DNA of 64,000 nucleotides, from contig AP026679.1 in the NCBI GenBank assembly GCA_025999155.1, forward strand, positions 227,996 to 291,995, given 5' to 3'. Shown one piece after another: positions 5,508 to 63,664 of this stretch. Source of the DNA: Candidatus Dojkabacteria bacterium (GTDB taxonomy: Bacteria; Patescibacteriota; Dojkabacteria; JAOAGR01). Both the position numbers and the translations under genes were made by a program. The stretch's first letter is position 1, and the number at the start of each line of letters is the position of its first letter. The notes below the pieces were generated by a model. The model was given only the letters and a program-made list of their open reading frames with translations, made no database searches and was not told where the DNA came from.

Positions 5508-5584
5508 CGGGGTATAGCTTAGTTGGCTAAAGCGCAAGGCTGGGGGTCTTGAGATCGACAGTTCAAGTCTGTCTACCCCGACCA
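5508..5584 (+). tRNA. tRNA-Pro (anticodon GGG)
   Basis: Near-duplicate of the upstream tRNA with anticodon loop CTGGGGG, C1-G72, T loop TTCAAGT and encoded CCA. Confidence 0.8.
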
Positions 5585-6037: not shown

Positions 6038-6892
6038 TTAAAAGTAATTAACTTTAGTGTTCCCACTCTCCATACATAAAGTGAGATATTTACTTTCTAT
6101 ATTATATTCCAAAGGAATAAGATAATCTTCAAAAACCACCTTATTACAAGCTTCTACACGAATAAACATATATGATTCGCTGCCAAGATTGATAGCCATA
6201 GCATTAGTTTTATTTTCAGTGCCATTGTAGAAGTAAATTACAGAGGATGGATCGTCTGATAACAAAGTCTCTGATTTATCAACGTAAATCTCAGGAAATT
6301 TATCGTAATAAAACTCATACTCTTCAATATTATCCACTAAAAGCTTAAATATAAGTTCACGATCCCGATCTCTACCTTCTACAGTCGATTTTGAAGTGAA
6401 TCTGATATTCAAGTTTTTATCTCTTTCAAGAGCATTGTTACTTTCAGCTTTGTTACTTTGAGCGGAATCATTTGATTTACTTGCCGTATCCTGGGTAGTA
6501 GTAGAAGTAGTAATGACGGGAGTAAGTGATGGTGTGACAGGAGTACTTGAAATTATTTCTTGCGAGAATCTTGACACAGTAGGAGTAGGAGAGAATGCGG
6601 CAATGTTACTACCAATACTCCTACTATTGTAGACTACATTTTCCGGTAAAAAATCATTATTTAAACGTACTTTATATTGATAAATCCCAAGCACATTGTT
6701 ATCAGAAATTTCATTTAAAAGTGACGAATCAACATGATTATGTCTAAACAAACCAATAAAATCAAAAACTAATAACAAACAACACATTGAAAACAACAGA
6801 ATTGTAGTTGCCTCACTATTAAGAATTCCATGTAAATATTTAAAAATATTGGCTTTTATTTTATTAAGCATGCTTAAGTTAAATTTACACAC
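6038..6892 (-). CDS. hypothetical membrane-anchored protein with Thr/Ser/Pro-rich linker
   Basis: An N-terminal TM helix is followed by TPVTPSLTPVITTSTTTQDTASKS and a C-terminal domain of unknown function. Confidence 0.4.
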   Translation of the reverse strand: MCKFNLSMLNKIKANIFKYLHGILNSEATTILLFSMCCLLLVFDFIGLFRHNHVDSSLLNEISDNNVLGIYQYKVRLNNDFLPENVVYNSRSIGSNIAAFSPTPTVSRFSQEIISSTPVTPSLTPVITTSTTTQDTASKSNDSAQSNKAESNNALERDKNLNIRFTSKSTVEGRDRDRELIFKLLVDNIEEYEFYYDKFPEIYVDKSETLLSDDPSSVIYFYNGTENKTNAMAINLGSESYMFIRVEACNKVVFEDYLIPLEYNIESKYLTLCMESGNTKVNYF

Positions 6893-6904
6893 AACTTGTA
6901 AATT

Positions 6905-9544
6905 TTAAAAAATCGTACAAGCCACAACTTTATCATCCTCATCTAATCTAAAAACAATCACACCACTCGTAACTCTGCTTGACATTCTAATATCTTCTAA
7001 AGCAACCCGAATAGATTGGCCTTTATATGACATTAGTAAAAGCTCTTTTTTAGGATGGTCTATTACTCGAGCAACAGCAATTTTCCCAGTTTTAGAAGCT
7101 ATTTTATACCCCAACATCCCTTTTGTACCACGACCTTTGAGGGGAAACTCAGTCAAAGAAGTCATCTTCCCAAAACCCCTCTCAGAAACCACAAGTATTC
7201 TATCCTCTTTCTCTCGTATAACATCCATCATTACCACATTATCATCCTTCTCAAGTTTAATCCCTCTTACACCTTTTGATGATCTTCCTGTAGGAGATAC
7301 CGAAGTTTCTTTAAATCTTACCGTACGTGCATTTTCTGTCATTATGACGATTTCAGCATCACCATGTGTTGTTCTAACAAATATTAACTCATCACCACTT
7401 TCTAAATTGATTGCGATAAGACCGTTTCGGCGTATGTCTTTAAACTCCTCAATAGGTACTTTTTTAACAAGACCTTTTTTCGTAGCCATAAATAGGTATT
7501 TACTTGCTACAAAATCTTGACCAACCACAACTTCTCCTTCTTGGATCTGATCTTCATCCGCAACCTCATAAACCTCTCCAAAAGACCTAGATAAGACAGA
7601 AGTAATAATTTCACCTGGTTCTATGGAAATTAAATTGACCAGAGGCACACCTTTAGATTTTTTTTGATGTTCGGGAATATCAAAAGCTCGTAAAGCATAG
7701 ACCTTTCCTTTGTTTGAAAATAAAAGCAGCTCAGAATGCGTATCGCAATATACAAGATGTTCGACATAATCACCTTCCTTTGTAACCGTAGCTAACGATC
7801 CTTTACCACCTCTTGATTGAGCACGAAATTCATTCTCCTTAAGACGTTTTACATAGCCATATCTGGAAATTAAAATTAATACATTTTCTTTTTCGACAAG
7901 ATCCTCCGCGCTAAATTCTCCTGGATTAGACTTAATAATACGAGTTCTTCTTGGATCACTAAACTTTTCTTTTACCTCTAATAAATCTTTAACTATTAAA
8001 TCTTCAATTTTTGCTTGAGAATCTAATAAAGTTTTGAGATCATCTATTTTCTGAGAAACATCCGCATACTCTTCTTCTACCTTATACCTCTCCAAAGCAG
8101 CCAGTTTTCGCAATTGCATATCAAGAATAGCTTGCGCTTGTACATCAGAAAATCCAAATCTTGTAATCAAAGATTGCTTAGCATCGTCAGCGCTCTTTGA
8201 TGATCGAATTATACTAATTATCTCATCAATATGATCTAAAGCTACTTTTAAACCCTCCAAAATATGTATTCTTTGGATATACTGGTTCAAATCAAAAATA
8301 GCAGTGCGAATGATAATTTCATAACGATGTCGAATGAATTGTTCTAGAATTTCTCTCAATGACAAAGTCCTGGGCTCCTGATCTACTATAGCGACCATAT
8401 TGTAATTAAATGCACTCTGCATTTCTGTGTATTTGTACAATTTATTTAGCACTACTTGGGGAACAACACCTTTTTTCAGTTCAACAACTAATCTAATACC
8501 TTCTTTTGATGTACTTTCATCTCTAATGTCAGCAATACCATCAATTTTCCCATCTTTATAAAGTCCAAAAATTCTCTCAGCTAATTTCGCTTTGTTTACT
8601 TGATAAGGTAATTCTGTGATGACTATTTGTGTACGTCCCTTACCTAAATCCTCAATTTCTGCAACACCACGCATTAAGACACGGCCTCGGCCAGTTTCAT
8701 ACGCCGTCTTCAAATCATTAACGTTGTATACTTCTGCCCCAGTAGGAAAATCCGGCCCTTTTATGAATCTCATTAATTCATCACTAGAAACATCAGATTC
8801 AAAGTTAGGATAATGTATGTCACGTGTTGTAATGTCATAATCTACTGCATCATAATAATCTTTTGCGGCATGCTGAGAGTAATTGAATTGTAGACCTTTA
8901 GCCTTATTTCCTGATTTGATCATATACACAATGGCATCTATGACCTCGGATAGATTATGGGGGGGAATTTTGGTAGCTAGACCAACAGCAATACCATCAG
9001 CACCATTGATTATTAAGTTTGGGACGGCTACAGGCAATACTGTAGGCTCTAAATATTCACCAGTATAGTTTGGCCGGTAATCAATAGACTTCTTTTCAAT
9101 GTTTTCTAAAAATTTTGTTGTAATCTTAGCAAGTCTACATTCTGTATACCTTGGCGCTGCAGGACTATCTCCGTCAATAGATCCAAAATTTCCTTGTCCA
9201 TCAATTAAAAGGTAACGCATGACCCAGTCTTGGCCCATACGTACCAAAGCATCATATACAGCAGCATCACCGTGCGGATGATATTTTTTGAGTACTTCAC
9301 CTACAACACCCATGCATTTGGAATATTTGCCATCTGGCAAAATACCCTCTTTATACATGGCATACAAAATTCTTCTTTGGACTGGTTTGAGACCATCACG
9401 TACATCTGGAAGCGCCCTAGCAACAACAACACTCATTGCATAGTCGATATATGAGCGCTTCATTTCTTCCTCAATAGAAACATTTTTAACGATGCCAGCT
9501 ATAACGTTTTTTGTAAGATTATTTGTATCAGTCGGATTCTGCAT
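6905..9544 (-). CDS. gyrA: DNA gyrase subunit A
   Basis: It carries the hallmark N-terminus [30 protein letters not shown]. The active-site Tyr region and C-terminal beta-pinwheel repeats are present. Length is 879 aa. Confidence 0.95.
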
Positions 9545-9614: not shown

Positions 9615-10178
9615 CTAAACTTCAGGATATTTACCGCCATGTTTTAAAGCATACTCATCCAATTCTCTCGCTGTCATTATTAACTTAGGATCAATTACAC
9701 GATCTAGAAATATAATACCTTCGAAATGATCCAATTCGTGTAAAATAACATGACTCAAATATCCATTCGCATTTAATATCTGTTCATTACCAGCCAAGTC
9801 GTAGTATCGAATTTGGCAAGATTTTGATCGAGATACAGGACCAAATAAGCTATTTTCTCCCTTACCGACGGAAGCACAGCCTTCCCATTCAGTACTTAAC
9901 TCCTTTGATGCATAAACTAATTTTGGGTTAATTACTTCCATGTATTGCTTTTTACGCAAATCATAATAAACAAAAAGTCTAATATTTAGCCCTAATTGAG
10001 GAGCTGATAATCCAACTAAAGTAATGCCACCCTTCGAATGTTTCTTCGCAAGGTTTTTTAGAGAATCTATAATCAAGAGTAAATCCGGCTCATTTTTCCG
10101 CACATCTCTAGATTTTGCAGACAATTTCGGATCGGGGTATTGTAAAATTGTTAAGTATTTGAAATTTACATTCTTCAT
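9615..10178 (-). CDS. def: peptide deformylase
   Basis: Motifs GLSAPQLG, EGCAS and HELDH are all present. Confidence 0.9.
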   Translation of the reverse strand: MKNVNFKYLTILQYPDPKLSAKSRDVRKNEPDLLLIIDSLKNLAKKHSKGGITLVGLSAPQLGLNIRLFVYYDLRKKQYMEVINPKLVYASKELSTEWEGCASVGKGENSLFGPVSRSKSCQIRYYDLAGNEQILNANGYLSHVILHELDHFEGIIFLDRVIDPKLIMTARELDEYALKHGGKYPEV

Positions 10179-10395
10179 TGGATTTAGTTTACGTATAAAT
10201 TCAATGTTTGGGTGTTTTAAATTTATTTTGTTTTTTCTTTAATTAATTAATGATTCAAAAATACAGCAGCCATTACATTGAATAGATTGATTAATTTTAC
10301 ACTATACCGATCAAAGCCGTAAGGAACATTATACTATCCAGAAATCATTACCGCTGTATCTCTCCCAGACAAAAAAGGGCAAACCGTATACCATG

Positions 10396-10631
10396 ATAGA
10401 GGCAGAAACTCTGCTCCAAGAGCAACTCTCAGTACATCGAAATAATAACTAATTCGCATACTCGGCTGTCACACAAAGGTTATACCTACAGTCAAGGGAT
10501 GTTTTCGTCTTGGTGGGGAGTCTTACGATTCAGTTTACTCCTAAGTTAACCCAATCAAACGACTTATGAGAATGCCTCTACAAAAAACCAGAACATTCCT
10601 TAAACACAGCGCCTGGACGAATCTGTAGATT
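10396..10631. repeat. ~235-nt conserved non-coding element, copy 1 (candidate structured RNA or miniature mobile element)
   Basis: It is ~98% identical to 11653-11887. The surrounding intergenic DNA of the two modules is only ~70-80% identical. No ORF is conserved between the copies. It contains local hairpins (GCAG-aaact-CTGC) and a long-range TAGAGGC/GCCTCTA inverted pair. Confidence 0.7.
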
Positions 10632-10818
10632 AACATATACGGCCTCCAAACTATGATTATTATTTTATTGAAAAATCTTAGTCGTTAGAAATTTTGTGCA
10701 TAATTTAACCAATCTTTACAATATCATAAATTCAGCCGTATTCAGGCAATGAAACCTTCCAAAGCCATGCATGCTTGCATTATCATCTATTCTAAATATA
10801 TAATTAATTAGTCCTATA

Positions 10819-11565
10819 ATGAAACCAGAAAACGAACACATAAAAAGACAAGACGGAAGCACGAATAAACCATTAGAAAATCCACAAAACCGGAATCCAA
10901 ATCAGCCTTACGGAGTAGATACGGGAAGCCATCTAATAAGACCGCAAGGACCGGAAGAACAAGGTATACCAAAGAGTCAAGTAAGAATTATACAAAGCAT
11001 TATAGGATTGACACCATGGGGCAGATCCAGGTCACCAAAGAGACTACATCCATCAGCAGGAACAAACTCACAAATAGGTAACTCAGCAGAAAAAGCAGAG
11101 CCGGCTTGTTCACTGCAAGACACGTCTCTTTGGGAATGGGCAAAAGAGCCAAACAAGCACCCGTTACGGTTGTTAGGACTTTCTTTCATGGCGATGTTCA
11201 TGTCACCATTCAAACCCGGTATGAAAGTATTTGCCCTCGGATCACCAGAACCAAATCGTAGTGAATGGGGTGAATGGTTTAGAATAGAACTAGGAGGGGA
11301 AGTTCTAGACCGTCGGGGATGTTTTCCTGTGTCCAGATTCGTCACAGTTATGACAAAGCACGGAGAAACTCAGACTCTGTGGCCCGATATGTTGTTAATG
11401 CTAAATCTTGCAATGGCTAAACTTTATACACAAATTGGCGATCAGATAACTTTACCCGATGGAAACTATGGAAAAGTAGAAAGATTTGTATATGACCCTG
11501 ATTCGTACACCATCGCTGCTGTGGCCATCCAAGAAGACGGTGAGCTTGTATTAGTTCCTGTTTGA
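10819..11565 (+). CDS. tandem-paralog family protein 1: disordered N-terminal region plus PRC-barrel-like C-terminal domain
   Basis: The C-terminus LNLAMAKLYTQIGDQITLPDGNYGKVERFVYDPDSYTIAAVAIQEDGELVLVPV aligns with the C-termini of the 12198 and 13788 ORFs. The pattern G..V...DG..GkV.d...D...g.i..l.v...lvPv resembles a PRC barrel. GC content is higher than in the flanks. Confidence 0.55.
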   Translation: MKPENEHIKRQDGSTNKPLENPQNRNPNQPYGVDTGSHLIRPQGPEEQGIPKSQVRIIQSIIGLTPWGRSRSPKRLHPSAGTNSQIGNSAEKAEPACSLQDTSLWEWAKEPNKHPLRLLGLSFMAMFMSPFKPGMKVFALGSPEPNRSEWGEWFRIELGGEVLDRRGCFPVSRFVTVMTKHGETQTLWPDMLLMLNLAMAKLYTQIGDQITLPDGNYGKVERFVYDPDSYTIAAVAIQEDGELVLVPV

Positions 11566-11652
11566 AAGATTTAAAAGCGATTGTGTTATCAAGAACAAAG
11601 GCTATGTGATGTCGGAAGTTTTATACCTATTAGGGTCAACCTGTATGCTATT

Positions 11653-11887
11653 ATAGAGGCAGAAACTCTGCTCCAAGAGCAACTCTCAGTACATCGAAAT
11701 AATAACTAATTCGCATACTCGGCTGTCACACAAAGGTTATACCTACAGTCAAGGGATGTTTTCGTCTTGGTGGGGAGTCTTACGATTCAGTTTACTCCTA
11801 AGTTAACCCAATCAAACGACTTATGAGAATGCCTCTACAAAAACCAGAACATTCCTTAAACACAGCGCCAGGATGAATCCGTAGATT
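11653..11887. repeat. ~235-nt conserved non-coding element, copy 2
   Basis: It is a direct repeat of 10396-10631. Visible differences are one A deletion and three substitutions near the 3' end. It lies between paralog 1 and paralog 2. Confidence 0.7.
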
Positions 11888-12182
11888 GTTCAAGGATTGA
11901 TCGAATACTAAGCATATAATGCGACTCTTTTAAATCAGGGGTCTTATTGTTGACGCAACAAAAGTTAGCCAAGCTCAACAAGAAGCTCCAAAACAGACAC
12001 GGTGTACGGTCTCCAAACTATAATTATTATCTTATCGAAAAATCCTATTAATTAGAAATTTTGTGTATACGTGAACAAATTGTTACAAAATCATAAATTC
12101 TTCTGTATTGAGCCCGATAAACCTTCAAAAAACTTATAATAAATAACTAGAAATATTTGCTTGCATCACTCTGTTTTATAGT

Positions 12183-12200
12183 GTATAATCAGTCACTATG
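12183..12200 (+). promoter_or_regulatory. extended -10 (GTGTATAAT) 8 nt before the ATG; putative leaderless start of paralog 2
   Basis: gtgtataat-cagtcact-ATG has the same spacing as upstream of paralog 3 (13771-13790). No Shine-Dalgarno sequence is present. Confidence 0.4.
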
Positions 12201-13250
12201 GAAGGACCATACCAGCAGCCAATGGGGAATCCAAACGAAGGACCAGAAAGACCAGAAGGTCAAGAAGGGAAAACTCAAAACCCTACAAAAACACAAAAGG
12301 GTACAAGCAGTGCACTAAGGCGACAGCAACCAGATGCACAAAGAGGAATAAAAGGACAAAGAAGACCGAAACAAGGGACAGCCCCAGGACAAGGAATAGA
12401 AGTTCTACAAGGGCAGGCTCCAGACCCTATAGAAACGGGTACAAGCAGTGCACTAAGGCGACAGCAACCAGATGCACAAAGAGACATAGAAGGCCCAACT
12501 AACCCAACAGCACCCGAAGTACAAGAAACGGAGGTACAAGGGCCAAAAGGACGAGGCGGACCAAAAGGACAGAGACAAGAGGTACAAGGAATAGAAGGAC
12601 AAGGCGGAACAGAAGGATCCGGGTTATCGGTAGAACAAAGATCATCAGAAGAACCAAGGTCATCAGAAGGGCCGAGGCCATCAGAAGGAACAGGGGGATC
12701 AGAAGGAACAAACTTCCAAATAGGTCAGTCAGTACCTCCAGAAAGTGTTTGGGGAGCAAAACCTCCTCTGTCAGATCAGCCCAAACGATTGCGCCCGCTT
12801 TTTTATTGGGCAAATAGGTTCAGGGAGGGTAGCTTTTTGCAGCGACTGGAAGCTCAATTCAAAGCGTGGTTCGGGCAACCGTTTGTAAAAGGTTCTCGAA
12901 TCCTGGTACCACGATCAGGTAGTAAAAAAATAGAGGATTGGGAAGTGATAAGTTACAAAGGACTACGACTCTTCCCTTGGTCAAGAAGAGTCATACTTGC
13001 ACACCCAAATGGCCCAGAATACGGAACGAAGGAGATGCCTCTTGGCTCTTTGGTAAAATTTAATCTTGTGATGACTAAACTTTATGCTGAGCACATGAAT
13101 AAAGGGGTAACCTTACCAAATGGGGAAAAAGGGGTAGTAACCGGATATGTATATCGGCACGAGTCTGGAACCATCTATGCTTTGGTAAGGCGAGACCTTC
13201 GTTACCGTAGCGAAATCGTAGCAGTTGCTGTTCAAAGGGTTGAAATTTAA
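12198..13250 (+). CDS. tandem-paralog family protein 2: long Gly/Pro/Gln/Glu-rich low-complexity N-terminus plus PRC-barrel-like C-terminal domain
   Basis: The C-terminus KFNLVMTKLYAEHMNKGVTLPNGEKGVVTGYVYRHESGTIYALV is homologous to paralogs 1 and 3. The N-terminal ~200 aa are low complexity and include a perfect 47-nt internal direct repeat (12299-12345 and 12437-12483, encoding GTSSALRRQQPDAQR). Confidence 0.55.
   Translation: MEGPYQQPMGNPNEGPERPEGQEGKTQNPTKTQKGTSSALRRQQPDAQRGIKGQRRPKQGTAPGQGIEVLQGQAPDPIETGTSSALRRQQPDAQRDIEGPTNPTAPEVQETEVQGPKGRGGPKGQRQEVQGIEGQGGTEGSGLSVEQRSSEEPRSSEGPRPSEGTGGSEGTNFQIGQSVPPESVWGAKPPLSDQPKRLRPLFYWANRFREGSFLQRLEAQFKAWFGQPFVKGSRILVPRSGSKKIEDWEVISYKGLRLFPWSRRVILAHPNGPEYGTKEMPLGSLVKFNLVMTKLYAEHMNKGVTLPNGEKGVVTGYVYRHESGTIYALVRRDLRYRSEIVAVAVQRVEI
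12299..12483 (+). repeat. two perfect 47-nt direct repeats (12299-12345, 12437-12483) inside the paralog-2 coding region
   Basis: gggtacaagcagtgcactaaggcgacagcaaccagatgcacaaagag occurs twice, 138 nt apart and in frame. Confidence 0.85.
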
Positions 13251-13309
13251 AAACGCTTGTATTATTCAAAATAAAGGCTGTATAATGCTGGAAGTTCTAT
13301 ACCTACTTC

Positions 13310-13317
13310 GGGGGGGG
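13310..13317. repeat. homopolymeric G8 tract (intergenic, between paralog 2 and 3)
   Basis: cttcggggggggcttttg is read directly. Such a run is rare at this GC content. Confidence 0.9.
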
Positions 13318-13360
13318 CTTTTGTCTACCTCCCGCCGTTTTATTTATTAAAAAGTAATCC

Positions 13361-13432
13361 GCCCCTTCGAATATTTCTACGCAGGGTTTGCCAGAGAATC
13401 TATAATCAAGGGTAAATCCAGTTCATTCTGGG
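13361..13432 (-). pseudogene. duplicated fragment of the def 5' coding region (non-functional relic)
   Basis: aaagtaatccgccccttcgaatatttctacgcagggtttgccagagaatctataatcaagggtaaatcc is ~80% identical to 10016-10090, inside def residues ~25-55. Orientation is the same as the original. No ORF is intact. Confidence 0.5.
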
Positions 13433-13770
13433 GTCAACCCATATGCCATGATAAAAGCTAAACCTATTCTCAAAAAATAAGTCGCAGCACATCGAAATAA
13501 GGACTAAAGTCCACGCTTTTAAATCGAGGTATTATTGAAGCAGCAAAAGCAAACCAGGCTAAACAAGAAACTCCAGAACAAAAACTGTATACGTGGACAT
13601 CACACTACAATCATTATTTTATGCAAAAATCTTATTAATCAGGATTTTAGTGCATATCAGTTTACTGATTTTTCCAATATCATAAATCAGCTGTTTTGTC
13701 CAATTAAAGCTGAAGAGAAGATTCATAACGTGGTGACAACTAGGCATAGTTGCGTGGAATGATATCGATA

Positions 13771-13790
13771 GTGTATAATTAAATACTATG
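13771..13790 (+). promoter_or_regulatory. extended -10 (GTGTATAAT) 8 nt before the ATG; putative leaderless start of paralog 3
   Basis: agtgtataat-taaatact-ATG repeats the geometry seen at paralog 2. Confidence 0.4.
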
Positions 13791-14669
13791 TTAAATCCAG
13801 AAGGACAGCACCAATGGAGTGCCCGAAAAGAAGAAGGCAACCTTTCACGAGAAGATGGTGAACTAGGACGGGGCATCCAACAAAGTGGACCAGAGCAAAA
13901 TCAGAATTCACAGCCACACGGGGGCTTTCAGAGATGGGCAGAGAATATAATGAATGGGCTGCAAGGTGTTTGGGGTGAGTTGTTTGGCCAGCAACCACGG
14001 CGCCTGATAGAATTTTCACTCCCACCAGAATACAAAGAACTTTTATCTCTTTTATCTCTTTCTCGGCAGGACTACGCAAACCTTGCTCTATGGGCGCAGG
14101 AAAGGCGTAAAACAGAACAAAATCCGGTTAGTTTATTAAAATGTTTTGTGATGGAGAACATCTTAAATCAGCCGCCATTCCCCCGTGGTATGGTAGTAGT
14201 TTATCCGGCATCGCAATTGCCAGGTACTACTCATACTGGTGCTGAGATTGGTCCTTGGTTTGTATTAGGAACGGGGAAAGTTACAGGTAGGGGAGGAATT
14301 TTTCCTGGAATTTTTCCTGGTTTCGGACAAGTCAAAATTGAAAACTCAGGAAAGATCAAAATTATTGAAAGATTCTTAGGAATATTCTCAACTGGAATCT
14401 TAAACGAAAGCTTACAAATAGTGGTAACAAGACCGGAGCCTTATTCCTGGGAGTTGGTAAGGTTAAATCGAGAAATTCTTCATCTGTACGGTCAAATCGG
14501 CAATAAGGTAACGTTACTCGGTGGAATACGAATAACAGGTGAAGTGGTCGGATTTGCATATAATGATAGTACTAGAATCATCGCTGCTATAGTGGCCCTA
14601 GTTGGTGAAGGAAGAAGACCAGAAGAACAAAGGAGTATGGTATTAGTTCCTGTTAAAAGGCTAGGGTGA
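13788..14669 (+). CDS. tandem-paralog family protein 3: disordered N-terminus plus PRC-barrel-like C-terminal domain
   Basis: The C-terminus LNREILHLYGQIGNKVTLLGGIRITGEVVGFAYNDSTRIIAAIVALV...MVLVPVKRLG aligns with paralog 1, including the terminal LVLVPV. Confidence 0.55.
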   Translation: MLNPEGQHQWSARKEEGNLSREDGELGRGIQQSGPEQNQNSQPHGGFQRWAENIMNGLQGVWGELFGQQPRRLIEFSLPPEYKELLSLLSLSRQDYANLALWAQERRKTEQNPVSLLKCFVMENILNQPPFPRGMVVVYPASQLPGTTHTGAEIGPWFVLGTGKVTGRGGIFPGIFPGFGQVKIENSGKIKIIERFLGIFSTGILNESLQIVVTRPEPYSWELVRLNREILHLYGQIGNKVTLLGGIRITGEVVGFAYNDSTRIIAAIVALVGEGRRPEEQRSMVLVPVKRLG

Positions 14670-14759
14670 AAGAGTTTTAATGCATAATTTTCAAGGAATT
14701 GGAGCGCTTCAATGTTTCTTGTATTAAGATATACTACGATTGAGTTGTGTGGTGTAACT

Positions 14760-15359
14760 TTAGCTTCCGAGTTTGTCTTTTAGCTCCAAAAGAGCAGCTT
14801 CTACCTTACAATTACTTTGCAGTAGTTTTATAGCTCTTTCTAGTGCTAAAATAGACAAGTAGTTACTATCATGCATACTTAACAAATACTGATACTCTAA
14901 TAATCTATTGATCACTTGCTCTCTATCCAGATTCACAAGTTCATCAAACTCAATATTCACCACTTCTGGAGAAGATATAAAAGACAAAGCTCTGCCTTGA
15001 GAATCTCTACAAAATATTTCAACACAACGCGACCTTATAGTCGGCAATATTGCATTAATATTGCTAACAGTCATAAAGATTGTTTTGTTGGTATCTTCCA
15101 GGACTTTGAGCAAGATGTTTTGAGACACGGGTGAGATTAAATCAGCCTGGACAATCAGGTATATATTTAGAACTTCTGTCTGTACACTAGTAAGATTAAC
15201 TTTCCGGATGAAATCACGTATGGCATCAATCGAATATTTCCCATCATTAGGAGTCATAGTATGAAAGACAAGCTTTTTATCCTGATAATTTAATAATTTC
15301 TCAATCTCTGAACTCAAAAAAGCAATTTCATGCAATTGTGTAATCAGTAAATACTTCAT
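14760..15359 (-). CDS. DNA polymerase III delta-prime-like clamp-loader subunit, short form lacking the P-loop
   Basis: It has the ILPTIRSRC sensor-1/SRC motif typical of HolB and gamma/tau subunits. It is only 199 aa and has no Walker A. Confidence 0.5.
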   Translation of the reverse strand: MKYLLITQLHEIAFLSSEIEKLLNYQDKKLVFHTMTPNDGKYSIDAIRDFIRKVNLTSVQTEVLNIYLIVQADLISPVSQNILLKVLEDTNKTIFMTVSNINAILPTIRSRCVEIFCRDSQGRALSFISSPEVVNIEFDELVNLDREQVINRLLEYQYLLSMHDSNYLSILALERAIKLLQSNCKVEAALLELKDKLGS

Positions 15360-23508: not shown

Positions 23509-25422
23509 ATGAAAAAACATGAAATAGTTAAAAAAAATCTACTGGAAATCTTAATCCCATACCCATCTTCAGAACAAATACTAAAAGCTCTTGAGCATGC
23601 AGAACGATTACATGCAAACCAAGTACGAAAATCAGGCGATCCATATATTATACATCCATTTACGGTAGGATACGAAATCGCTAATCTACGCTTGGATACA
23701 AATACCGTAATTGCAGCACTACTACACGATACAATAGAAGACTGTAATATATCTTATGATGAACTTAATCAAGAGTATGGCGACGAGGTAGCTAAATTAG
23801 TAGATGGCGTTACAAAAGTTGCCTCACTGACACATAATTCGCTACAGAGATATTCAGAAATAGAGAATCTTAAGAAGTTTATTATCGCATTATCAAAAGA
23901 TATTCGCGTCCTACTTATCAAACTGGCAGACAGACTTCATAATATGCGAACAATCGAAGCATTACCGCCAGATAAACAAATCACCTATGCCAGAGAAACA
24001 CTGGAACTGTATGTCCCGCTTGCTGAATATATCCGAATCGGTAAATTTAAAAGAGAGTTAGAAGATTTAGCTTTTAAAGTACTAGAACCCGAACGATACA
24101 AAACTATTGAGATGCTAGTGAAAAGATATACCGATTTTGCCTCTACTATAACTAACGATTTAATAGACACAGTAGAAAAACTTTTAATCAACAATAAATT
24201 TAATGATGTCAAAGTATTTGGTCGTACGAAATCATACTATTCTATTTACAAAAAAATCTTACGCAAACTCAAAGAAGGAGAAAAACTAGAAGAATTCGAT
24301 GTGACTAAGATAAAAGACTATATCGCTGTATCGATAGTCCTAAACTCTAATAATAAAATCGATTGTTATCAAGTATTAGGATTAGTTCATGGTAATTTTA
24401 GTTATTCAGAAAAAGACTTTGCTGATTACATCGCAAAACCTAAACCTAATAATTACCAGTCAATTCATACTGTGGTGAAATTTAAAAAGCAATATTGCGA
24501 AATCCAAATAAAAACTCAACAAATGCATGAATATAACGAATTTGGCCCAGCGTCACATATAGCTTATAAACTCAGTGGTAGTAAATATGCCAAACCATCG
24601 AATGAATACGCCTGGGTTAAAAATCTTGCTAAATGGACAGAAGATACTAAAGATTATCGTCTAAACCTTTTTGACAATAGAGTTTTTGTAATAACTCCAA
24701 AAGGTAAAATTGTTGATTTACCAAAGGGCTCAAAACCATTAGATTTTGCATATGCCATACACAGTCAAATAGGTAACAGATATATAGGAGCAAAAATCAA
24801 TGGGAAAATTGTCGATATCAATGCTGAACTACACAATGGTGATGTCGTTGAAATAATCGCATCTAAAAAGAATAAAAGACCTCCGATTGAATGGATTCAT
24901 CATGCGTATCTAGCGAGGACAAAAAGTAAAATTCGTAAATATGCAGCAAAATTCGATACTGAATCGCATATAAGACAAGGGAAAGAAGCACTATCCACAT
25001 ATTTTCTTAAAAAAATCAAGATTGATTGGTTAAATTTAGATTCGACCGTAATTAACTATGTTTTAAATGAGCTTAATATCAAAGAAATTGATAATTTATA
25101 TATCAAGCTAGCACAAAACCAATTAGACAAGAAAACCATTCTGAAACTGACCCTCAAGCGCCTCCACTTACAACAACATAGGACCATTATCCATCAAACA
25201 AGCGGGCAAATAGAGGAAACGACTAAAACAATAAAAAAAGTTAAAATTGAAGGAGTGACCGGCCTGGATTTTACTATAGCAAAATGCTGTAATCCAACTA
25301 TTGATGATACTATTGTCGGTATCGTCACATTAAGAGATGGCCTCAAAATCCATAGGACTAATTGTAAGAATTTACAAGAATTTGATCCGAAAAGAATTCT
25401 TAGAGCAGAGTGGGGTGACTGA
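23509..25422 (+). CDS. rel: bifunctional (p)ppGpp synthetase/hydrolase (RelA/SpoT family)
   Basis: HD hydrolase motif HPFTVGYEIANL...LLHDTIEDC, a RelA_SpoT synthetase domain, and TGS and ACT-like C-terminal domains. Confidence 0.9.
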   Translation: MKKHEIVKKNLLEILIPYPSSEQILKALEHAERLHANQVRKSGDPYIIHPFTVGYEIANLRLDTNTVIAALLHDTIEDCNISYDELNQEYGDEVAKLVDGVTKVASLTHNSLQRYSEIENLKKFIIALSKDIRVLLIKLADRLHNMRTIEALPPDKQITYARETLELYVPLAEYIRIGKFKRELEDLAFKVLEPERYKTIEMLVKRYTDFASTITNDLIDTVEKLLINNKFNDVKVFGRTKSYYSIYKKILRKLKEGEKLEEFDVTKIKDYIAVSIVLNSNNKIDCYQVLGLVHGNFSYSEKDFADYIAKPKPNNYQSIHTVVKFKKQYCEIQIKTQQMHEYNEFGPASHIAYKLSGSKYAKPSNEYAWVKNLAKWTEDTKDYRLNLFDNRVFVITPKGKIVDLPKGSKPLDFAYAIHSQIGNRYIGAKINGKIVDINAELHNGDVVEIIASKKNKRPPIEWIHHAYLARTKSKIRKYAAKFDTESHIRQGKEALSTYFLKKIKIDWLNLDSTVINYVLNELNIKEIDNLYIKLAQNQLDKKTILKLTLKRLHLQQHRTIIHQTSGQIEETTKTIKKVKIEGVTGLDFTIAKCCNPTIDDTIVGIVTLRDGLKIHRTNCKNLQEFDPKRILRAEWGD

Positions 25423-25488
25423 CGGGATTCGAACCCGCGACATCAGCTTCCACAGAGCTGCGCTCTAACCAGCTGAGCTACAGTCACC
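25411..25488 (-). tRNA. tRNA-His (anticodon GTG) with genome-encoded G-1 and CCA
   Basis: The minus strand reads G-1 GTGACTG...CAGCT-CTGTGGA-AGCTG...GCGGG-TTCGAAT-CCCGT-CAGTCAC-C-CCA. Its 3' end overlaps the last 12 nt of rel antisense. Confidence 0.8.
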
Positions 25489-36244: not shown

Positions 36245-36910
36245 TCAAGTGGTAATTTTATCCTTTATCTTGTCAAATTGCGACTTCGTAACAACTTTCT
36301 TAGTTAAAAGTTCGTCAATAGAATTATAAGGACGGCTAGATATAATTTTATCTGCCGTTACTTCCCCTACACCAGGTAAATCGATTAACTCTTTACGAGA
36401 AGCTGTATTAATGTTTATCAATCCTGATTGCGTATATACACCAAGTACTCCACCAGAGTCCTGAGGAGTATCACCTTGCGATGAATTAGTGTTAGGAGAT
36501 ACAGCAGCCATCAAATCCTCCACAGTAGGAATATATATTTTCATACCATCTGATATTTTTTGAGCCTTATTAATATTCTTGTCAAAATATTTTGCATCAA
36601 CACTCTCAGTAAGGCCCCCAGCTTTTTCTATCACTTCAATTACTCTTGCATTCTCTTGCATCTCATATACTCCAGGGTTTCTAACTGCACCACCTATATC
36701 TACTATTACAGTCTTTGCTACGTCTGAAAAAGCATTAGTTTCATCAGAAGATGCTATATTTGATTTTAAATCAGGCTTCTGATTCTGATTTAGGTTCGAA
36801 TTTTTTGATACCAAATAGAACCCGAAAGCCAGCAGTGCAATTATAAGCACTATATTTATTATCTTTATAAGTGATCGCTTCTGATCACTCGAAGTATTTA
36901 CAATGTCCAT
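36245..36910 (-). CDS. comEA: competence protein ComEA (membrane-anchored DNA receptor)
   Basis: N-terminal TM, an SLBB-like domain, and a C-terminal tandem HhH ININTASRKELIDLPGVGEVTADKII. Confidence 0.85.
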   Translation of the reverse strand: MDIVNTSSDQKRSLIKIINIVLIIALLAFGFYLVSKNSNLNQNQKPDLKSNIASSDETNAFSDVAKTVIVDIGGAVRNPGVYEMQENARVIEVIEKAGGLTESVDAKYFDKNINKAQKISDGMKIYIPTVEDLMAAVSPNTNSSQGDTPQDSGGVLGVYTQSGLININTASRKELIDLPGVGEVTADKIISSRPYNSIDELLTKKVVTKSQFDKIKDKITT

Positions 36911-36925
36911 GTGATAATTATTATA

Positions 36926-38008
36926 CTAAGTCACATCGACATTTTCATCAGCATAAAATTTCTTAATTCTATCTTCTGTAAAACCTTTCATGTGCACTTC
37001 AACCGTTAACCTGATACCAATTTTATCAGCTTCTGTCCAGATTTTATCTACGACTGCATAGTAATCTTCTGCAGTACCGTTACCAACATTCATTATGATG
37101 TTTTTATTGATTTGAACCTGTCCAGGCGGAGTTTTTTCTGGTACCATAATATCCCCTACTCTATAACCGGACAAGTTAAGTACATGTTCGATCAAATATG
37201 CTACTGAATTGGTGGGTAATCCTAATTTTTCCTGCTGAGCTTTTGTAAGATTTAAAAAAACTGAACCTAACGAATTTTTTGGTTGAGAAGCTTTTTTTTG
37301 TGCCCACATAGTTGCTGCCCTTTGAGCACGATTTTTATCACCTAATCGTAAAAGAAAATTCACGGTTATAACGACAGATTTTGAATGTTGAAGTTTGCTA
37401 TAACCATAATGAAAATCAAGTTCGTCATGATAAACAAGTCTAATATCGCCATTTTGATCTAATATTTCGACAGAATGTACATAATCAGAAAAATTTTTAG
37501 GACCTCCATGAATATTATTCACTACAGACGCGCCAACTGTACCGGGAATCCCTGCAAAATAATGTAAACCCACAATCCCCCTGTCATTTAGAAAATTAAT
37601 AATATATGGTAAAGGCACACCGGCATCGGCTTTCACAAGTATTTCCTCTCCTTCCGTTTCATCATATTCTATGTCAGAAATATCATAACCTGAAGATATT
37701 GTACTTGTACGAAATACTTGATGTCTCGTTTCGACTCGTTTTAATTTTACATCCCGATACAGAGATCTATCTAGACCTACCTGGATATTTTTTGATTTAA
37801 CTTGTATCAGATCACAATCAACGCCATTATCTGCAAAAAGGGTATTCGCAGACCATCCTATAATATCAAATGCTTTCCCATTTAATACATAATCTCTCAG
37901 TGTATTAACAAGCTCATCAGAAGATTCACTCACAATAAATTTTTTACATGGCCCACCTATTTTTATCCAAGAACAATCCTTTAGTAGGATGTTTTCGTAT
38001 ATTTGCAT
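36926..38008 (-). CDS. murB: UDP-N-acetylenolpyruvoylglucosamine reductase
   Basis: An FAD-binding N-terminus IGGPCKKF and a GIPGTVGASVVNNIHG motif. Confidence 0.75.
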   Translation of the reverse strand: MQIYENILLKDCSWIKIGGPCKKFIVSESSDELVNTLRDYVLNGKAFDIIGWSANTLFADNGVDCDLIQVKSKNIQVGLDRSLYRDVKLKRVETRHQVFRTSTISSGYDISDIEYDETEGEEILVKADAGVPLPYIINFLNDRGIVGLHYFAGIPGTVGASVVNNIHGGPKNFSDYVHSVEILDQNGDIRLVYHDELDFHYGYSKLQHSKSVVITVNFLLRLGDKNRAQRAATMWAQKKASQPKNSLGSVFLNLTKAQQEKLGLPTNSVAYLIEHVLNLSGYRVGDIMVPEKTPPGQVQINKNIIMNVGNGTAEDYYAVVDKIWTEADKIGIRLTVEVHMKGFTEDRIKKFYADENVDVT

Positions 38009-44373: not shown

Positions 44374-44460
44374 TGGTGCCGAAAGGGGGAATCGAACCCC
44401 CACTCTATTGCTAGAATCGGATTTTGAGTCCGACGCGTCTACCAATTCCGCCATCTCGGC
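44374..44460 (-). tRNA. tRNA-Leu (anticodon CAA), long variable arm, CCA encoded
   Basis: The minus strand reads GCCGAGA-TG-GCGGAATTGGTAGACGC-GTCGGA-CTCAAAA-TCCGAT-(variable arm)-GGGGG-TTCGATT-CCCCT-TTCGGCA-CCA. Confidence 0.8.
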
Positions 44461-50433: not shown

Positions 50434-50454
50434 AATTTAAATCCTAAAAGCAAT

Positions 50455-50797
50455 GATTGACTACCACATAAGCCGGATTCTGTTTATGTGGTCATTTATC
50501 TACTCTCCCCACCAAAACTTGGGATTTCTTCGAATGGAGGTTGCCTGTATCTAACCATTACTGGCCAGATATGTGTGCTCTTACCACACATTTTCACCCT
50601 CACCACACATACCGTGTGGCAATATGTCTCTGTGGCCCTATTCGTAAAGTCACATCTACCCGACTTAATCTAGCAGAATTAGATCTACTAGACACCATCG
50701 GCATTCTTCCCCACTTAAGGGGCGAAGTCCGGACTTTCCTCCCATTTGTCTATTGTTTTAGATAATAGATTAATGGGCGACCACTTGTGGTAGTCTC
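50455..50797 (-). ncRNA. rnpB: RNase P RNA (bacterial type A)
   Basis: The minus strand carries GGGAGGAAAGUCCGGACUUCGCC (P4 5' strand), AGGGUGAAAAUGUGUGGUAAGAGCACACA (P10/11-12 region), ACAGAAUCCGGCUUA (P4 3' strand) and a P1 stem GACUACCACA/UGUGGUAGUC. The track ORFs 50488-50673 and 50541-50765 lie on top of it and are spurious. Confidence 0.85.
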
Positions 50798-62059: not shown

Positions 62060-63664
62060 TCATCTGAGTTTAAAGATATTTGTAATTTCTGCATCAGACA
62101 AATCTTCAACTTTTCTCTGATTATCCGACATTGTTACATCAGTAGACGATGTCTCAGGTATTGACACAAGCTCCACCACCAAAGAGACATTATACCCTAC
62201 AATGGAAGAAAATTCATCCATGATATCTTTTATTTTTTGAGATCTTAAAAGATCCTGCTCGAATTTTTTTTCCACCTTTACAATTATTTGTGAGTCTTTA
62301 ATCTGAAAACCTCTACCGACTAACAACTTATACATGAAAGTATTTCTTGATTTTACAAAATTCAAGAAATCTTTTTCCGAAATAGGTGAGATTAATAAGT
62401 CTTTTCGTCTAGTCGGCGATTTAGTCTTTTTGTCTCGTTGCGATGTATTCTTTCTCTTGTTATGTAATATCACTACGGGATTTATATTGACAGCTTCTGC
62501 TTCCCTTTTCCGGATGGCATTATTTGGTGCAGTATTGGACTCCGCATCGCAAGCGTCCGTTGGATTCTGTATTGCACAGATCTGATTTTTACTGTTGTTC
62601 TTTATCTTATTTTGATCTATCAACTCAGCATCATCAATTTTATTTGCAATAAAATACATAATTTTCGCAGCATATAGAATTTTTTGATTGAGAATACCTT
62701 TTAACTCTTTTTCAAGACCACATAAGAAATCAAGGAGAGCCATTTTATAATTATCTACTGTATGGCTTTTTAAATCATTCACTATATCGTCATAAATCAT
62801 CTCACAAACCTGATAGTTGAAATTCACTATATTCCCTTCATCAATCTTAGTTTCTATAAAGATCTGTATCTCAGACAAAGCCCTAGTATACAATAAATCT
62901 TTAAATGCAATGACAATAGGAAACTGAGAAAAACCTAAAATCTGTGTAATATCTGCAAAACTTATTCTAGTCAAATGGGAGAATTGTAGCACGTTTTCTA
63001 GTATACTTTCTGTATCACGAAAACTCCCCTTCCCTAATTTCGCAATAAACCTCTTACCTTCTTCGTCAATTTCATAACCTTCATTTTCCAATATGAGGTC
63101 GATCTTGGAAATAATCTCTTCAATTGACGCAAACTTTAGCTCTAAAACCTGAGTTCGCGAGGTTATAGTAGAGGGCAACTTATGTATCTCTGTTGTACAA
63201 AAAATAAACACAACATGCTTCGGAGGTTCCTCTAATGTCTTCAATAGCGCATTAAAGGCCTCTTTTGTCATCATATGGACCTCGTCTATGATATACACTT
63301 TCTTTTTTCCGAGTGATGGTAGAAATTCTATTGACTCTTTCAACAGCCGAATCTCTTCTATCCCACGGTTAGATGCTGCGTCCATTTCAATAATATCAGG
63401 ATGACTGCCAGAGAGCGCAAGTAGACAGCTCTTACACTGATTACACGGTTCTCCATAGTGACGGATAAAATCATCATTTTCACAGTTTAGAGATCGGGCA
63501 AAAATTCGTGCGATAGAAGTTTTACCTGATCCCCTGGTCCCCACAAGAAGGTATGCATGTCCGTAAGATTGTTGTTTCAATGCATTTTGTAAGATCTGAG
63601 TTACATGTTTTTGAGTAAATACCTCATTGAAAGTTTTTGCACGGTATTTTTGATATAAAGACAT
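62060..63664 (-). CDS. dnaX: DNA polymerase III subunits gamma/tau
   Basis: Walker A GTRGSGKTS, the zinc module CENDDFIRHYGEPCNQCKSC and the SRC motif. Confidence 0.9.
   Translation of the reverse strand: MSLYQKYRAKTFNEVFTQKHVTQILQNALKQQSYGHAYLLVGTRGSGKTSIARIFARSLNCENDDFIRHYGEPCNQCKSCLLALSGSHPDIIEMDAASNRGIEEIRLLKESIEFLPSLGKKKVYIIDEVHMMTKEAFNALLKTLEEPPKHVVFIFCTTEIHKLPSTITSRTQVLELKFASIEEIISKIDLILENEGYEIDEEGKRFIAKLGKGSFRDTESILENVLQFSHLTRISFADITQILGFSQFPIVIAFKDLLYTRALSEIQIFIETKIDEGNIVNFNYQVCEMIYDDIVNDLKSHTVDNYKMALLDFLCGLEKELKGILNQKILYAAKIMYFIANKIDDAELIDQNKIKNNSKNQICAIQNPTDACDAESNTAPNNAIRKREAEAVNINPVVILHNKRKNTSQRDKKTKSPTRRKDLLISPISEKDFLNFVKSRNTFMYKLLVGRGFQIKDSQIIVKVEKKFEQDLLRSQKIKDIMDEFSSIVGYNVSLVVELVSIPETSSTDVTMSDNQRKVEDLSDAEITNIFKLR

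Follow-up and report, generated by a model that had tools for sequence, protein, structure and literature searches.

A 64 kb stretch of the Candidatus Dojkabacteria metagenome-assembled genome (MAG) KatS3mg084, a 738,054-bp contig, carries two near-identical non-coding repeats embedded in an array of three rapidly evolving genes. We refer to this stretch as the window, to the repeat as E, to its copies as E1 and E2, and to the array genes as P1–P3; copy counts of E cover the 64 kb. Our analysis indicates, with a rough probability of 0.65, that the identity of E1 and E2 is the trace of gene conversion or unequal crossing-over within a tandem array whose units recombine, and that E is not a free-standing regulatory RNA. 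The data contain an abrupt step in sequence identity, concerted evolution at four sites in two strains, a hybrid variant with a single E, and a lineage-specific expansion of the array in situ. Recombination alone would account for the identity, and E would need no function of its own.

E1 (10396–10631, 236 nt) sits between the def and P1 genes, which point away from each other, and E2 (11653–11887, 235 nt) begins 87 nt past the P1 stop codon, upstream of P2. The copies are direct repeats with a spacing of 1,257 nt and P1 between them. Their alignment contains one indel (a run of six A residues versus five, 10582–10587) and three mismatches (10614 T/A, 10618 C/T and 10624 T/C), in agreement with the original prediction, made from the letters of the window, of two near-identical elements of about 235 nt. 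The first 191 nt of E1, which we call the core (10396–10586), are 100% identical to 11653–11843 and to positions 8066–8256 of a contig from a second strain, L006. The tail (10587–10631) carries the A-run indel and the three mismatches relative to E2, plus four strain-specific substitutions. If positions matched at the ~79% seen in the alignable spacer next to E, an unbroken run of 191 identities would have a probability of ~3e-20, so the identity of the two cores is not due to chance.

E has stop codons in all six frames. The ATG of a 19-codon open reading frame (ORF) at 10393–10395, next to copy 1, is ATT in copy 2, and the earlier observation that the copies share no ORF stands. When the frames of E were compared by tblastn with the window (E masked) and with all fetched loci, the only match was a relic in the third module of the array. 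Unlike the piece of def at 13351–13427, E is thus no recognisable gene fragment. Neither blastn nor nhmmer found a further copy of E in the window, and the BLASTN check proposed earlier, in which additional copies would have pointed to a miniature inverted-repeat transposable element (MITE) or an RNA family, also returned nothing from the fetched related loci.

The boundaries of E are informative. Between modules 1 and 2, identity is 44–56% in the upstream flank, climbs across the last 20 nt, reaches 100% in the core of E and falls from 92 to 76% in the tail. Beyond E it is 72–88% in the promoter block, ~45–60% in coding DNA and 72–76% in the 3' flanks. The rest of the module had been described as 70–80% identical, which fits the promoter-proximal blocks and 3' flanks and fails for the coding sequences, where amino acid identity is 34–37%. 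To the left of the sharp 5' edge, about 20 nt of further homology continue at about 70% (GGGCAAACCGTATACCATG vs GGGTCAACCTGTATGCTATT). E is thus a near-identity tract with an abrupt boundary inside an older, more diverged homology. At the 3' edge the homology breaks off, because module 1 lacks ~105–117 nt that are present in modules 2 and 3. Module 3 retains the relic at 13431–13507, which spans the 20-nt upstream flank and the first 57 nt of E, is 74% identical to them and corresponds to the degraded third copy of ~75 nt noticed earlier. The remainder of E, framed in module 2 by the short direct repeats ATCGAAATAATAACTAA and ATCGAATACTAA, is absent from this module. All three modules share homology in the head of E and in the 20 nt that precede it, which makes E a component of the ancestral unit.

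The second strain is represented by the Joint Genome Institute (JGI) contig Ga0401068_000059 (L006; 213,770 nt), which is syntenic with the window at a background identity of ~98.5–99% per 200 nt. L006 carries a single E (8066–8301), whose left flank and head resemble copy 1 and whose last bases and right flank resemble copy 2. Exactly 10632–11887 is missing, and the def flank is joined to module 2 through the hybrid E. Either the contig is a genuine recombinant from which the unit was deleted, or the assembly path collapsed. In sample SRR12784215, contig L007 is 99.9% identical to L006, and another contig of the same sample, L002, carries the P1 orthologue with the tail of E at its 5' end and the head of E at its 3' end. 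Since parts of E stand on both sides of P1 in L002, the E–P1–E arrangement exists in the SRR12784215 population too.

Four sites in the tail distinguish the strains. Both copies in the window have A at 10593, A at 10595, C at 10599 and A at 10608, whereas the P1-side tail of L002 and the module-2-side tail of L006 both have G at the first three of these sites and T at the fourth. Within each strain the two tails thus carry the same bases at these sites, whereas the strains differ from one another; this is concerted evolution. Where the identical tract ends is strain-dependent as well: the tails of the second strain match up to GAATC (10623), and those of the window differ from 10614 onwards. 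Between strains, the core shows 0 differences in 191 nt, an outcome expected at a background of 1–1.5% (P = 0.06 at 1.5%), so the core offers no evidence of constraint. The tail, with 5 differences in 48 nt (P ~9e-4 vs the 1–1.5% background), has changed faster than the background. The clustering of these differences fits a patch imported by recombination and not constraint.

Independent support for the repeat comes from the Logan contigs L013 (def side) and L001 (with P1), both from the same run, and L002 from the second sample. All three break off at precisely the same point, 30 nt inside E, at ...CCAAGAGCAA. A k = 31 graph is expected to stop in this way where a genuine repeat begins, and the repetition of E is thus no assembler artefact.

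The array unit consists of a spacer, a promoter and a fast-evolving ORFan gene, and in the favored explanation E would be its most recently homogenised piece. Recombination between units would have overwritten one E by the other at least once since the two strains split, either through non-reciprocal gene conversion or through unequal crossing-over or loop-out and re-integration of the 1.26-kb E+P1 unit. The expected outcome would be ~190 nt at 100% identity, sharply bounded on the 5' side and set within older spacer homology of ~70–79%. The 236-bp direct repeats around P1 could act as substrates to delete, re-insert or exchange the E+P1 unit, a state seen or mimicked in L006, and recombination between the E copies would also keep them identical.

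Several observations weigh against recombination as the whole explanation. The guanine plus cytosine (GC) content of E is 41.5%, compared with 28–30% in the spacers directly beside E1, a contrast not expected of ordinary spacer; other array spacers have 32–36%, the P genes 43–47% and the genome 35%. E also contains an 8-bp perfect inverted repeat on the plus strand, formed by the arms TAGAGGCA (10397–10404; 11654–11661 in E2) and TGCCTCTA (10573–10580; 11830–11837 in E2), so that the TAGAGGC...GCCTCTA pair pointed out in the original prediction is real. The arms close the predicted fold of the core; the identical core starts 1 nt before one arm and ends 6 nt past the other. Cut at the arms (10396–10583, plus strand), the core folds with a z-score of -2.66, with 0 of 200 shuffles as stable, or of -2.0 to -2.4 with separate shuffles. 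Conversion would moreover be inefficient if the copies had been only ~75–80% identical beforehand. As for the second strain, L002 and L006 derive from separate data sets on a single population (99.9% identical) and not from one closed genome, and the single E of L006 perhaps reflects collapse during assembly instead of deletion. The GC excess and the stem at the limits of the tract are unaccounted for by recombination and keep a functional element in consideration at low probability.

Such an element would be E, or its ~185-nt core closed by TAGAGGCA/TGCCTCTA, acting as a functional RNA or protein-binding cis element under purifying selection, possibly together with gene conversion. We consider this unlikely, even though the GC content, the stability of the core and the match between its terminal stem and the limits of the 100% tract point in its direction, as does an intergenic region of 640 nt, which is long for a 738-kb genome. 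A window-wide scan with Rfam 15 at the gathering score yielded RNase P RNA and three tRNAs only and nothing in E, and at E <= 10 over 10200–12200 the sole match was a chance snoRNA outside E; the original prediction had likewise seen no fit to the riboswitch consensuses that it considered. ARAGORN also found nothing in E. The RNAalifold test proposed for a structured RNA gave compensatory changes in 0 of 66 pairs, with no power, as the three sequences are identical in the core and the copies hardly vary; one tail pair is broken in E2. Over its whole length E folds no better than its shuffles (z of -1.16 and -0.83 on the plus strand and +0.07 on the minus strand). Among arbitrary 188-nt background windows, 2.5% reach the core's z of -2.66 and 4% reach -2, and the limits of the core were picked post hoc. 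A consensus scan found no promoter or terminator common to both copies, whose contexts differ: E1 has no co-directional upstream gene, and E2 follows P1. P3 is intact in module 3 although only a decayed head of E with a broken hairpin remains there, the tail diverges above the background rate, and E is missing at the syntenic loci of three related species. A more specific version, in which the ~185-nt core (10396–10583) would be a new structured non-coding RNA or a recombination-guiding element, a conserved handle for swapping or regulating the variable P cassettes and peculiar to this lineage-restricted array under strong diversifying selection, appears rather improbable. On present evidence, E does not hold up as a regulatory-RNA candidate and does not belong on a list of RNA discoveries.

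We regard it as very unlikely that the tandem is partly a matter of assembly interpretation, with one chromosomal E and an E+P1 unit contributed either by a variant strain present alongside or by an excised circle; E1 and E2 would then be a single sequence counted two times. At ~190 nt, the identical core is longer than a short read of 150 nt (an assumed read length), the graph, with two entries to and two exits from E, fits a tandem as well as a single E with a 1.26-kb loop, and L006 follows the single-E path. However, the tails differ (A6/A5 and three mismatches), each being tied to a different downstream flank, and the heads have different upstream flanks; two junction pairs therefore exist in the reads of two samples, and the 738-kb MAG resolves the copies in tandem. 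Also very unlikely is the reading of E as a MITE-like or site-specific homing element, small and non-autonomous, that recently entered homologous sites of modules 1 and 2, with the relic as an older insertion that has since decayed. The inverted repeat near the core ends, the sharp 5' boundary, a GC content unlike that of the surrounding spacer, and ATCGAAATAATAACTAA and ATCGAATACTAA flanking, in module 2, the ~200 nt absent from module 3 would all suit such an element. Nevertheless, only two copies occur in 64 kb, both in the array, and E was found neither in the 20.8 kb of L006 outside the array nor in the related loci. No target-site duplication accompanies either the 236-nt unit or the core bounded by the inverted repeat (CCATG precedes and AACATA follows E1; CTATT precedes and GTTCAA follows E2). 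The inverted repeat spans just 8 bp and does not occupy both ends of the unit, its 3' arm lying ~50 nt inside a unit that continues to 10631, and the first 57 nt of E with the upstream flank belong to the ancestral module. Collections of phages, plasmids and viruses gave no match beyond chance: blastn of E returned a chance 31-nt match among phages and nothing among plasmids, and two E 20/21-mers returned nothing from IMG/VR. The E-head 20-mer produced one chance match each in the GTDB species genomes and the JGI metagenomes, neither with flanking similarity; these scans were not exhaustive, as they missed L006, which carries the 20-mer. The explanations offered in the original prediction thus fared differently: gene conversion is supported by the four tail sites and the L006 hybrid, purifying selection on an RNA, to which that prediction inclined, is weakly supported, and mobility is unsupported.

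Two further candidates were rejected. A diversity-generating retroelement does not fit the differences between E1 and E2 (T/A, C/T, T/C and an indel), which are not confined to adenine, nor the substitutions in P1, which affect all bases; E is also not similar to the P genes. For an integron attC or dif-like site, inspection by eye revealed nothing resembling a core site, and every cassette carries a promoter-like box of its own; no search of the neighborhood for integrase or Xer genes was made.

The background scan for folding stability had its strongest z-scores at 36801–36988 (-5.4) and 63201–63388 (-4.6), both on the minus strand and both without an Rfam match. These segments overlap long ORFs or a gene junction (36245–36910 / 36926–38008 and 62060–63664). 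The Rfam matches in the window were RNase P RNA class A (152 bits, 50454–50796, minus strand) and tRNAs at 5508–5581 (plus), 25414–25487 (minus) and 44377–44460 (minus).

The array occupies the plus strand between gyrA (6905–9544, minus) and def (9615–10178, minus) on one side and holB (14760–15359, minus) on the other. It begins with E1, the promoter block, P1 and its 3' flank, continues with E2, an extra spacer, a promoter block and P2, and ends with a 77-nt def fragment, the relic, a promoter block and P3. The promoter-proximal block of module 1 (10638–10763, plus strand) is 79% identical to 12005–12130, and its sub-blocks are 77–86% identical to 13601–13687. The 1256-nt repeat unit absent from L006 (10632–11887) comprises the P1 promoter, P1, its 3' flank and E2. 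The genomic context is not the one pictured in the original prediction: the copies are direct repeats that bracket P1 within a 4.6-kb insertion (10179–14759, between def and holB). In three related species (L008, L009 and L011), whose def genes are 66–74% identical, holB, def and gyrA are adjacent and co-directional, with a holB–def gap of 29–138 nt, and nhmmer and blastn detected nothing of the array, including E, at these holB-def-gyrA loci. Since the cluster is contiguous in the relatives without the array, 10179–14759 is a lineage-specific insertion. The def fragment (13351–13427, 77 nt), which lies upstream of the module 3 relic, is 84% identical to 10018–10094 in the same orientation; its presence shows that the expansion took place in situ, beside def. 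A G-run/C-rich hairpin plus a T-run occurs at about 13307–13345, ahead of this fragment. The GC content of the array rises to 51%, well over the 35% of the genome.

P1 (10819–11565, 248 amino acids, KatS3mg084_0210 in the source annotation), P2 (12198–13250, 350 amino acids, with internal repeats) and P3 (13788–14669, 293 amino acids) are plus-strand ORFan paralogs with 34–37% pairwise amino acid identity. The family had no match in Pfam, PHROGs, PADLOC or NCBIfam and none in viral contigs, and when 1.84 billion representatives were searched exhaustively with an HMMER profile, only this MAG and one sister strain carried it. A match of the family profile to a WD40 blade was spurious (hhalign probability 26%). 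The AlphaFold2 model of P1, built on an alignment of 4 sequences, had a mean predicted local distance difference test (pLDDT) score of 40. P2 contains a 66-nt direct repeat (91%, spaced 138 nt; 12295–12360 / 12433–12498) and an 18-nt tandem repeat in 4 copies (12632–12705), located in an N-terminal half of low complexity. Gene calling in strain L006 splits P2 into two overlapping ORFs (161 and 132 amino acids), so the gene is frameshifted or pseudogenised there.

An exact TAGTGTATAAT box ends 8 nt ahead of the ATG in both P2 (12179–12189) and P3 (13769–13779) on the plus strand, which suggests that the P2 and P3 mRNAs may be leaderless. The same motif, read as TAGTGTAAAAT, occurs on the minus strand at 10294–10304, ~116 nt upstream of def and outside E. 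The consensus, TAGTGTAWAAT, resembles an extended -10 element and, with <=1 mismatch, gave 14 matches window-wide vs 7 expected. Given the boxes at P2, P3 and def, the promoters likely lie outside E, and a role of E as the def promoter is unlikely, the exact TAGTGTAAAAT box being located elsewhere.

The P genes diverge much faster than their neighbors. Between the window and the second strain, the ratio of nonsynonymous to synonymous substitution rates (dN/dS) was 4.39 for P1 (43 nonsynonymous and 3 synonymous substitutions, binomial P = 0.003), 1.8 for the C-terminus of P2 and 1.13 for P3 (dS 0.29), compared with 0.13 for def, 0.06 for gyrA and 0.16 for holB. DNA identity was 71–74% for P3 and 80–85% for the P2 C-terminus, against the background of 98.5–99%. 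Nearly all substitutions in P1 hit the first or second position of a codon, and each of the four bases is affected. The divergence of the P genes indicates either strong diversifying selection or the import of alleles, and the array is a hot spot of recombination and diversification. A second divergence hot spot lies downstream of gyrA, where a hypothetical membrane/Thr-Ser-Pro-rich protein (6038–6892, minus strand) matches L006 at 78–85% of DNA and 74% of amino acid positions; indels are present, and the C-terminal third hardly varies.

Concerted evolution through gene conversion or unequal crossing-over is known for the duplicated tuf genes and the rRNA operons of bacteria. As in those cases, the two E copies of one genome resemble each other more than corresponding sites of different strains do, identity rises abruptly within older homology, and direct repeats allow the loss or gain of a unit. 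In contrast to them, the tract in E is non-coding and the adjacent genes diverge fast (34–37% amino acid identity, dN/dS above 1), whereas the classic cases homogenise coding sequence. At the pil loci of Neisseria, the downstream Sma/Cla repeat is a conserved non-coding repeat at antigenic-variation cassettes. E is similarly a conserved non-coding block beside hypervariable genes in a recombining array and could anchor cassette exchange. However, the P array has no layout of an expression locus and silent cassettes, each P gene having its own promoter-like TAGTGTATAAT box; there is no sequence similarity, and no recombination factor was identified.

The Correia elements of Neisseria are MITEs, and E resembles them in being ~100–250 nt long and non-coding, with an inverted repeat and near-identical copies. 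It differs in the absence of a target-site duplication, in an 8-bp inverted repeat that is not at both unit ends, and in having only two known copies, which occupy homologous positions in a single array. Candidates for structured non-coding RNAs have been recognised as long GC-rich intergenic regions of AT-rich genomes; E shares with them the long intergenic region, a GC content ~12 points over the adjacent spacers and a fold with a terminal stem. Unlike such candidates, it has no Rfam family and no covariation, is restricted to one species-level lineage, and has a fold that is not exceptional for its genome.

Overall, these results describe a new instance of an ordinary evolutionary phenomenon, the concerted evolution of a tandem array, though its setting is unusual: a non-coding repeat beside extremely fast genes, in a 738-kb Patescibacteria genome with scarce spare DNA. 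The ORFan array, which splits the conserved holB-def-gyrA cluster and whose three paralogs occur, among ~15 billion proteins, in two strains only, is more notable than the repeat itself. A dN/dS of 4.4 in P1 and a divergence of 26–29% in P3 at a background of ~1.5% carry the signature of an arms race, as would befit a surface, phage or host interaction. Within this array, E may serve as a block of homology for the gain, loss or exchange of cassettes.

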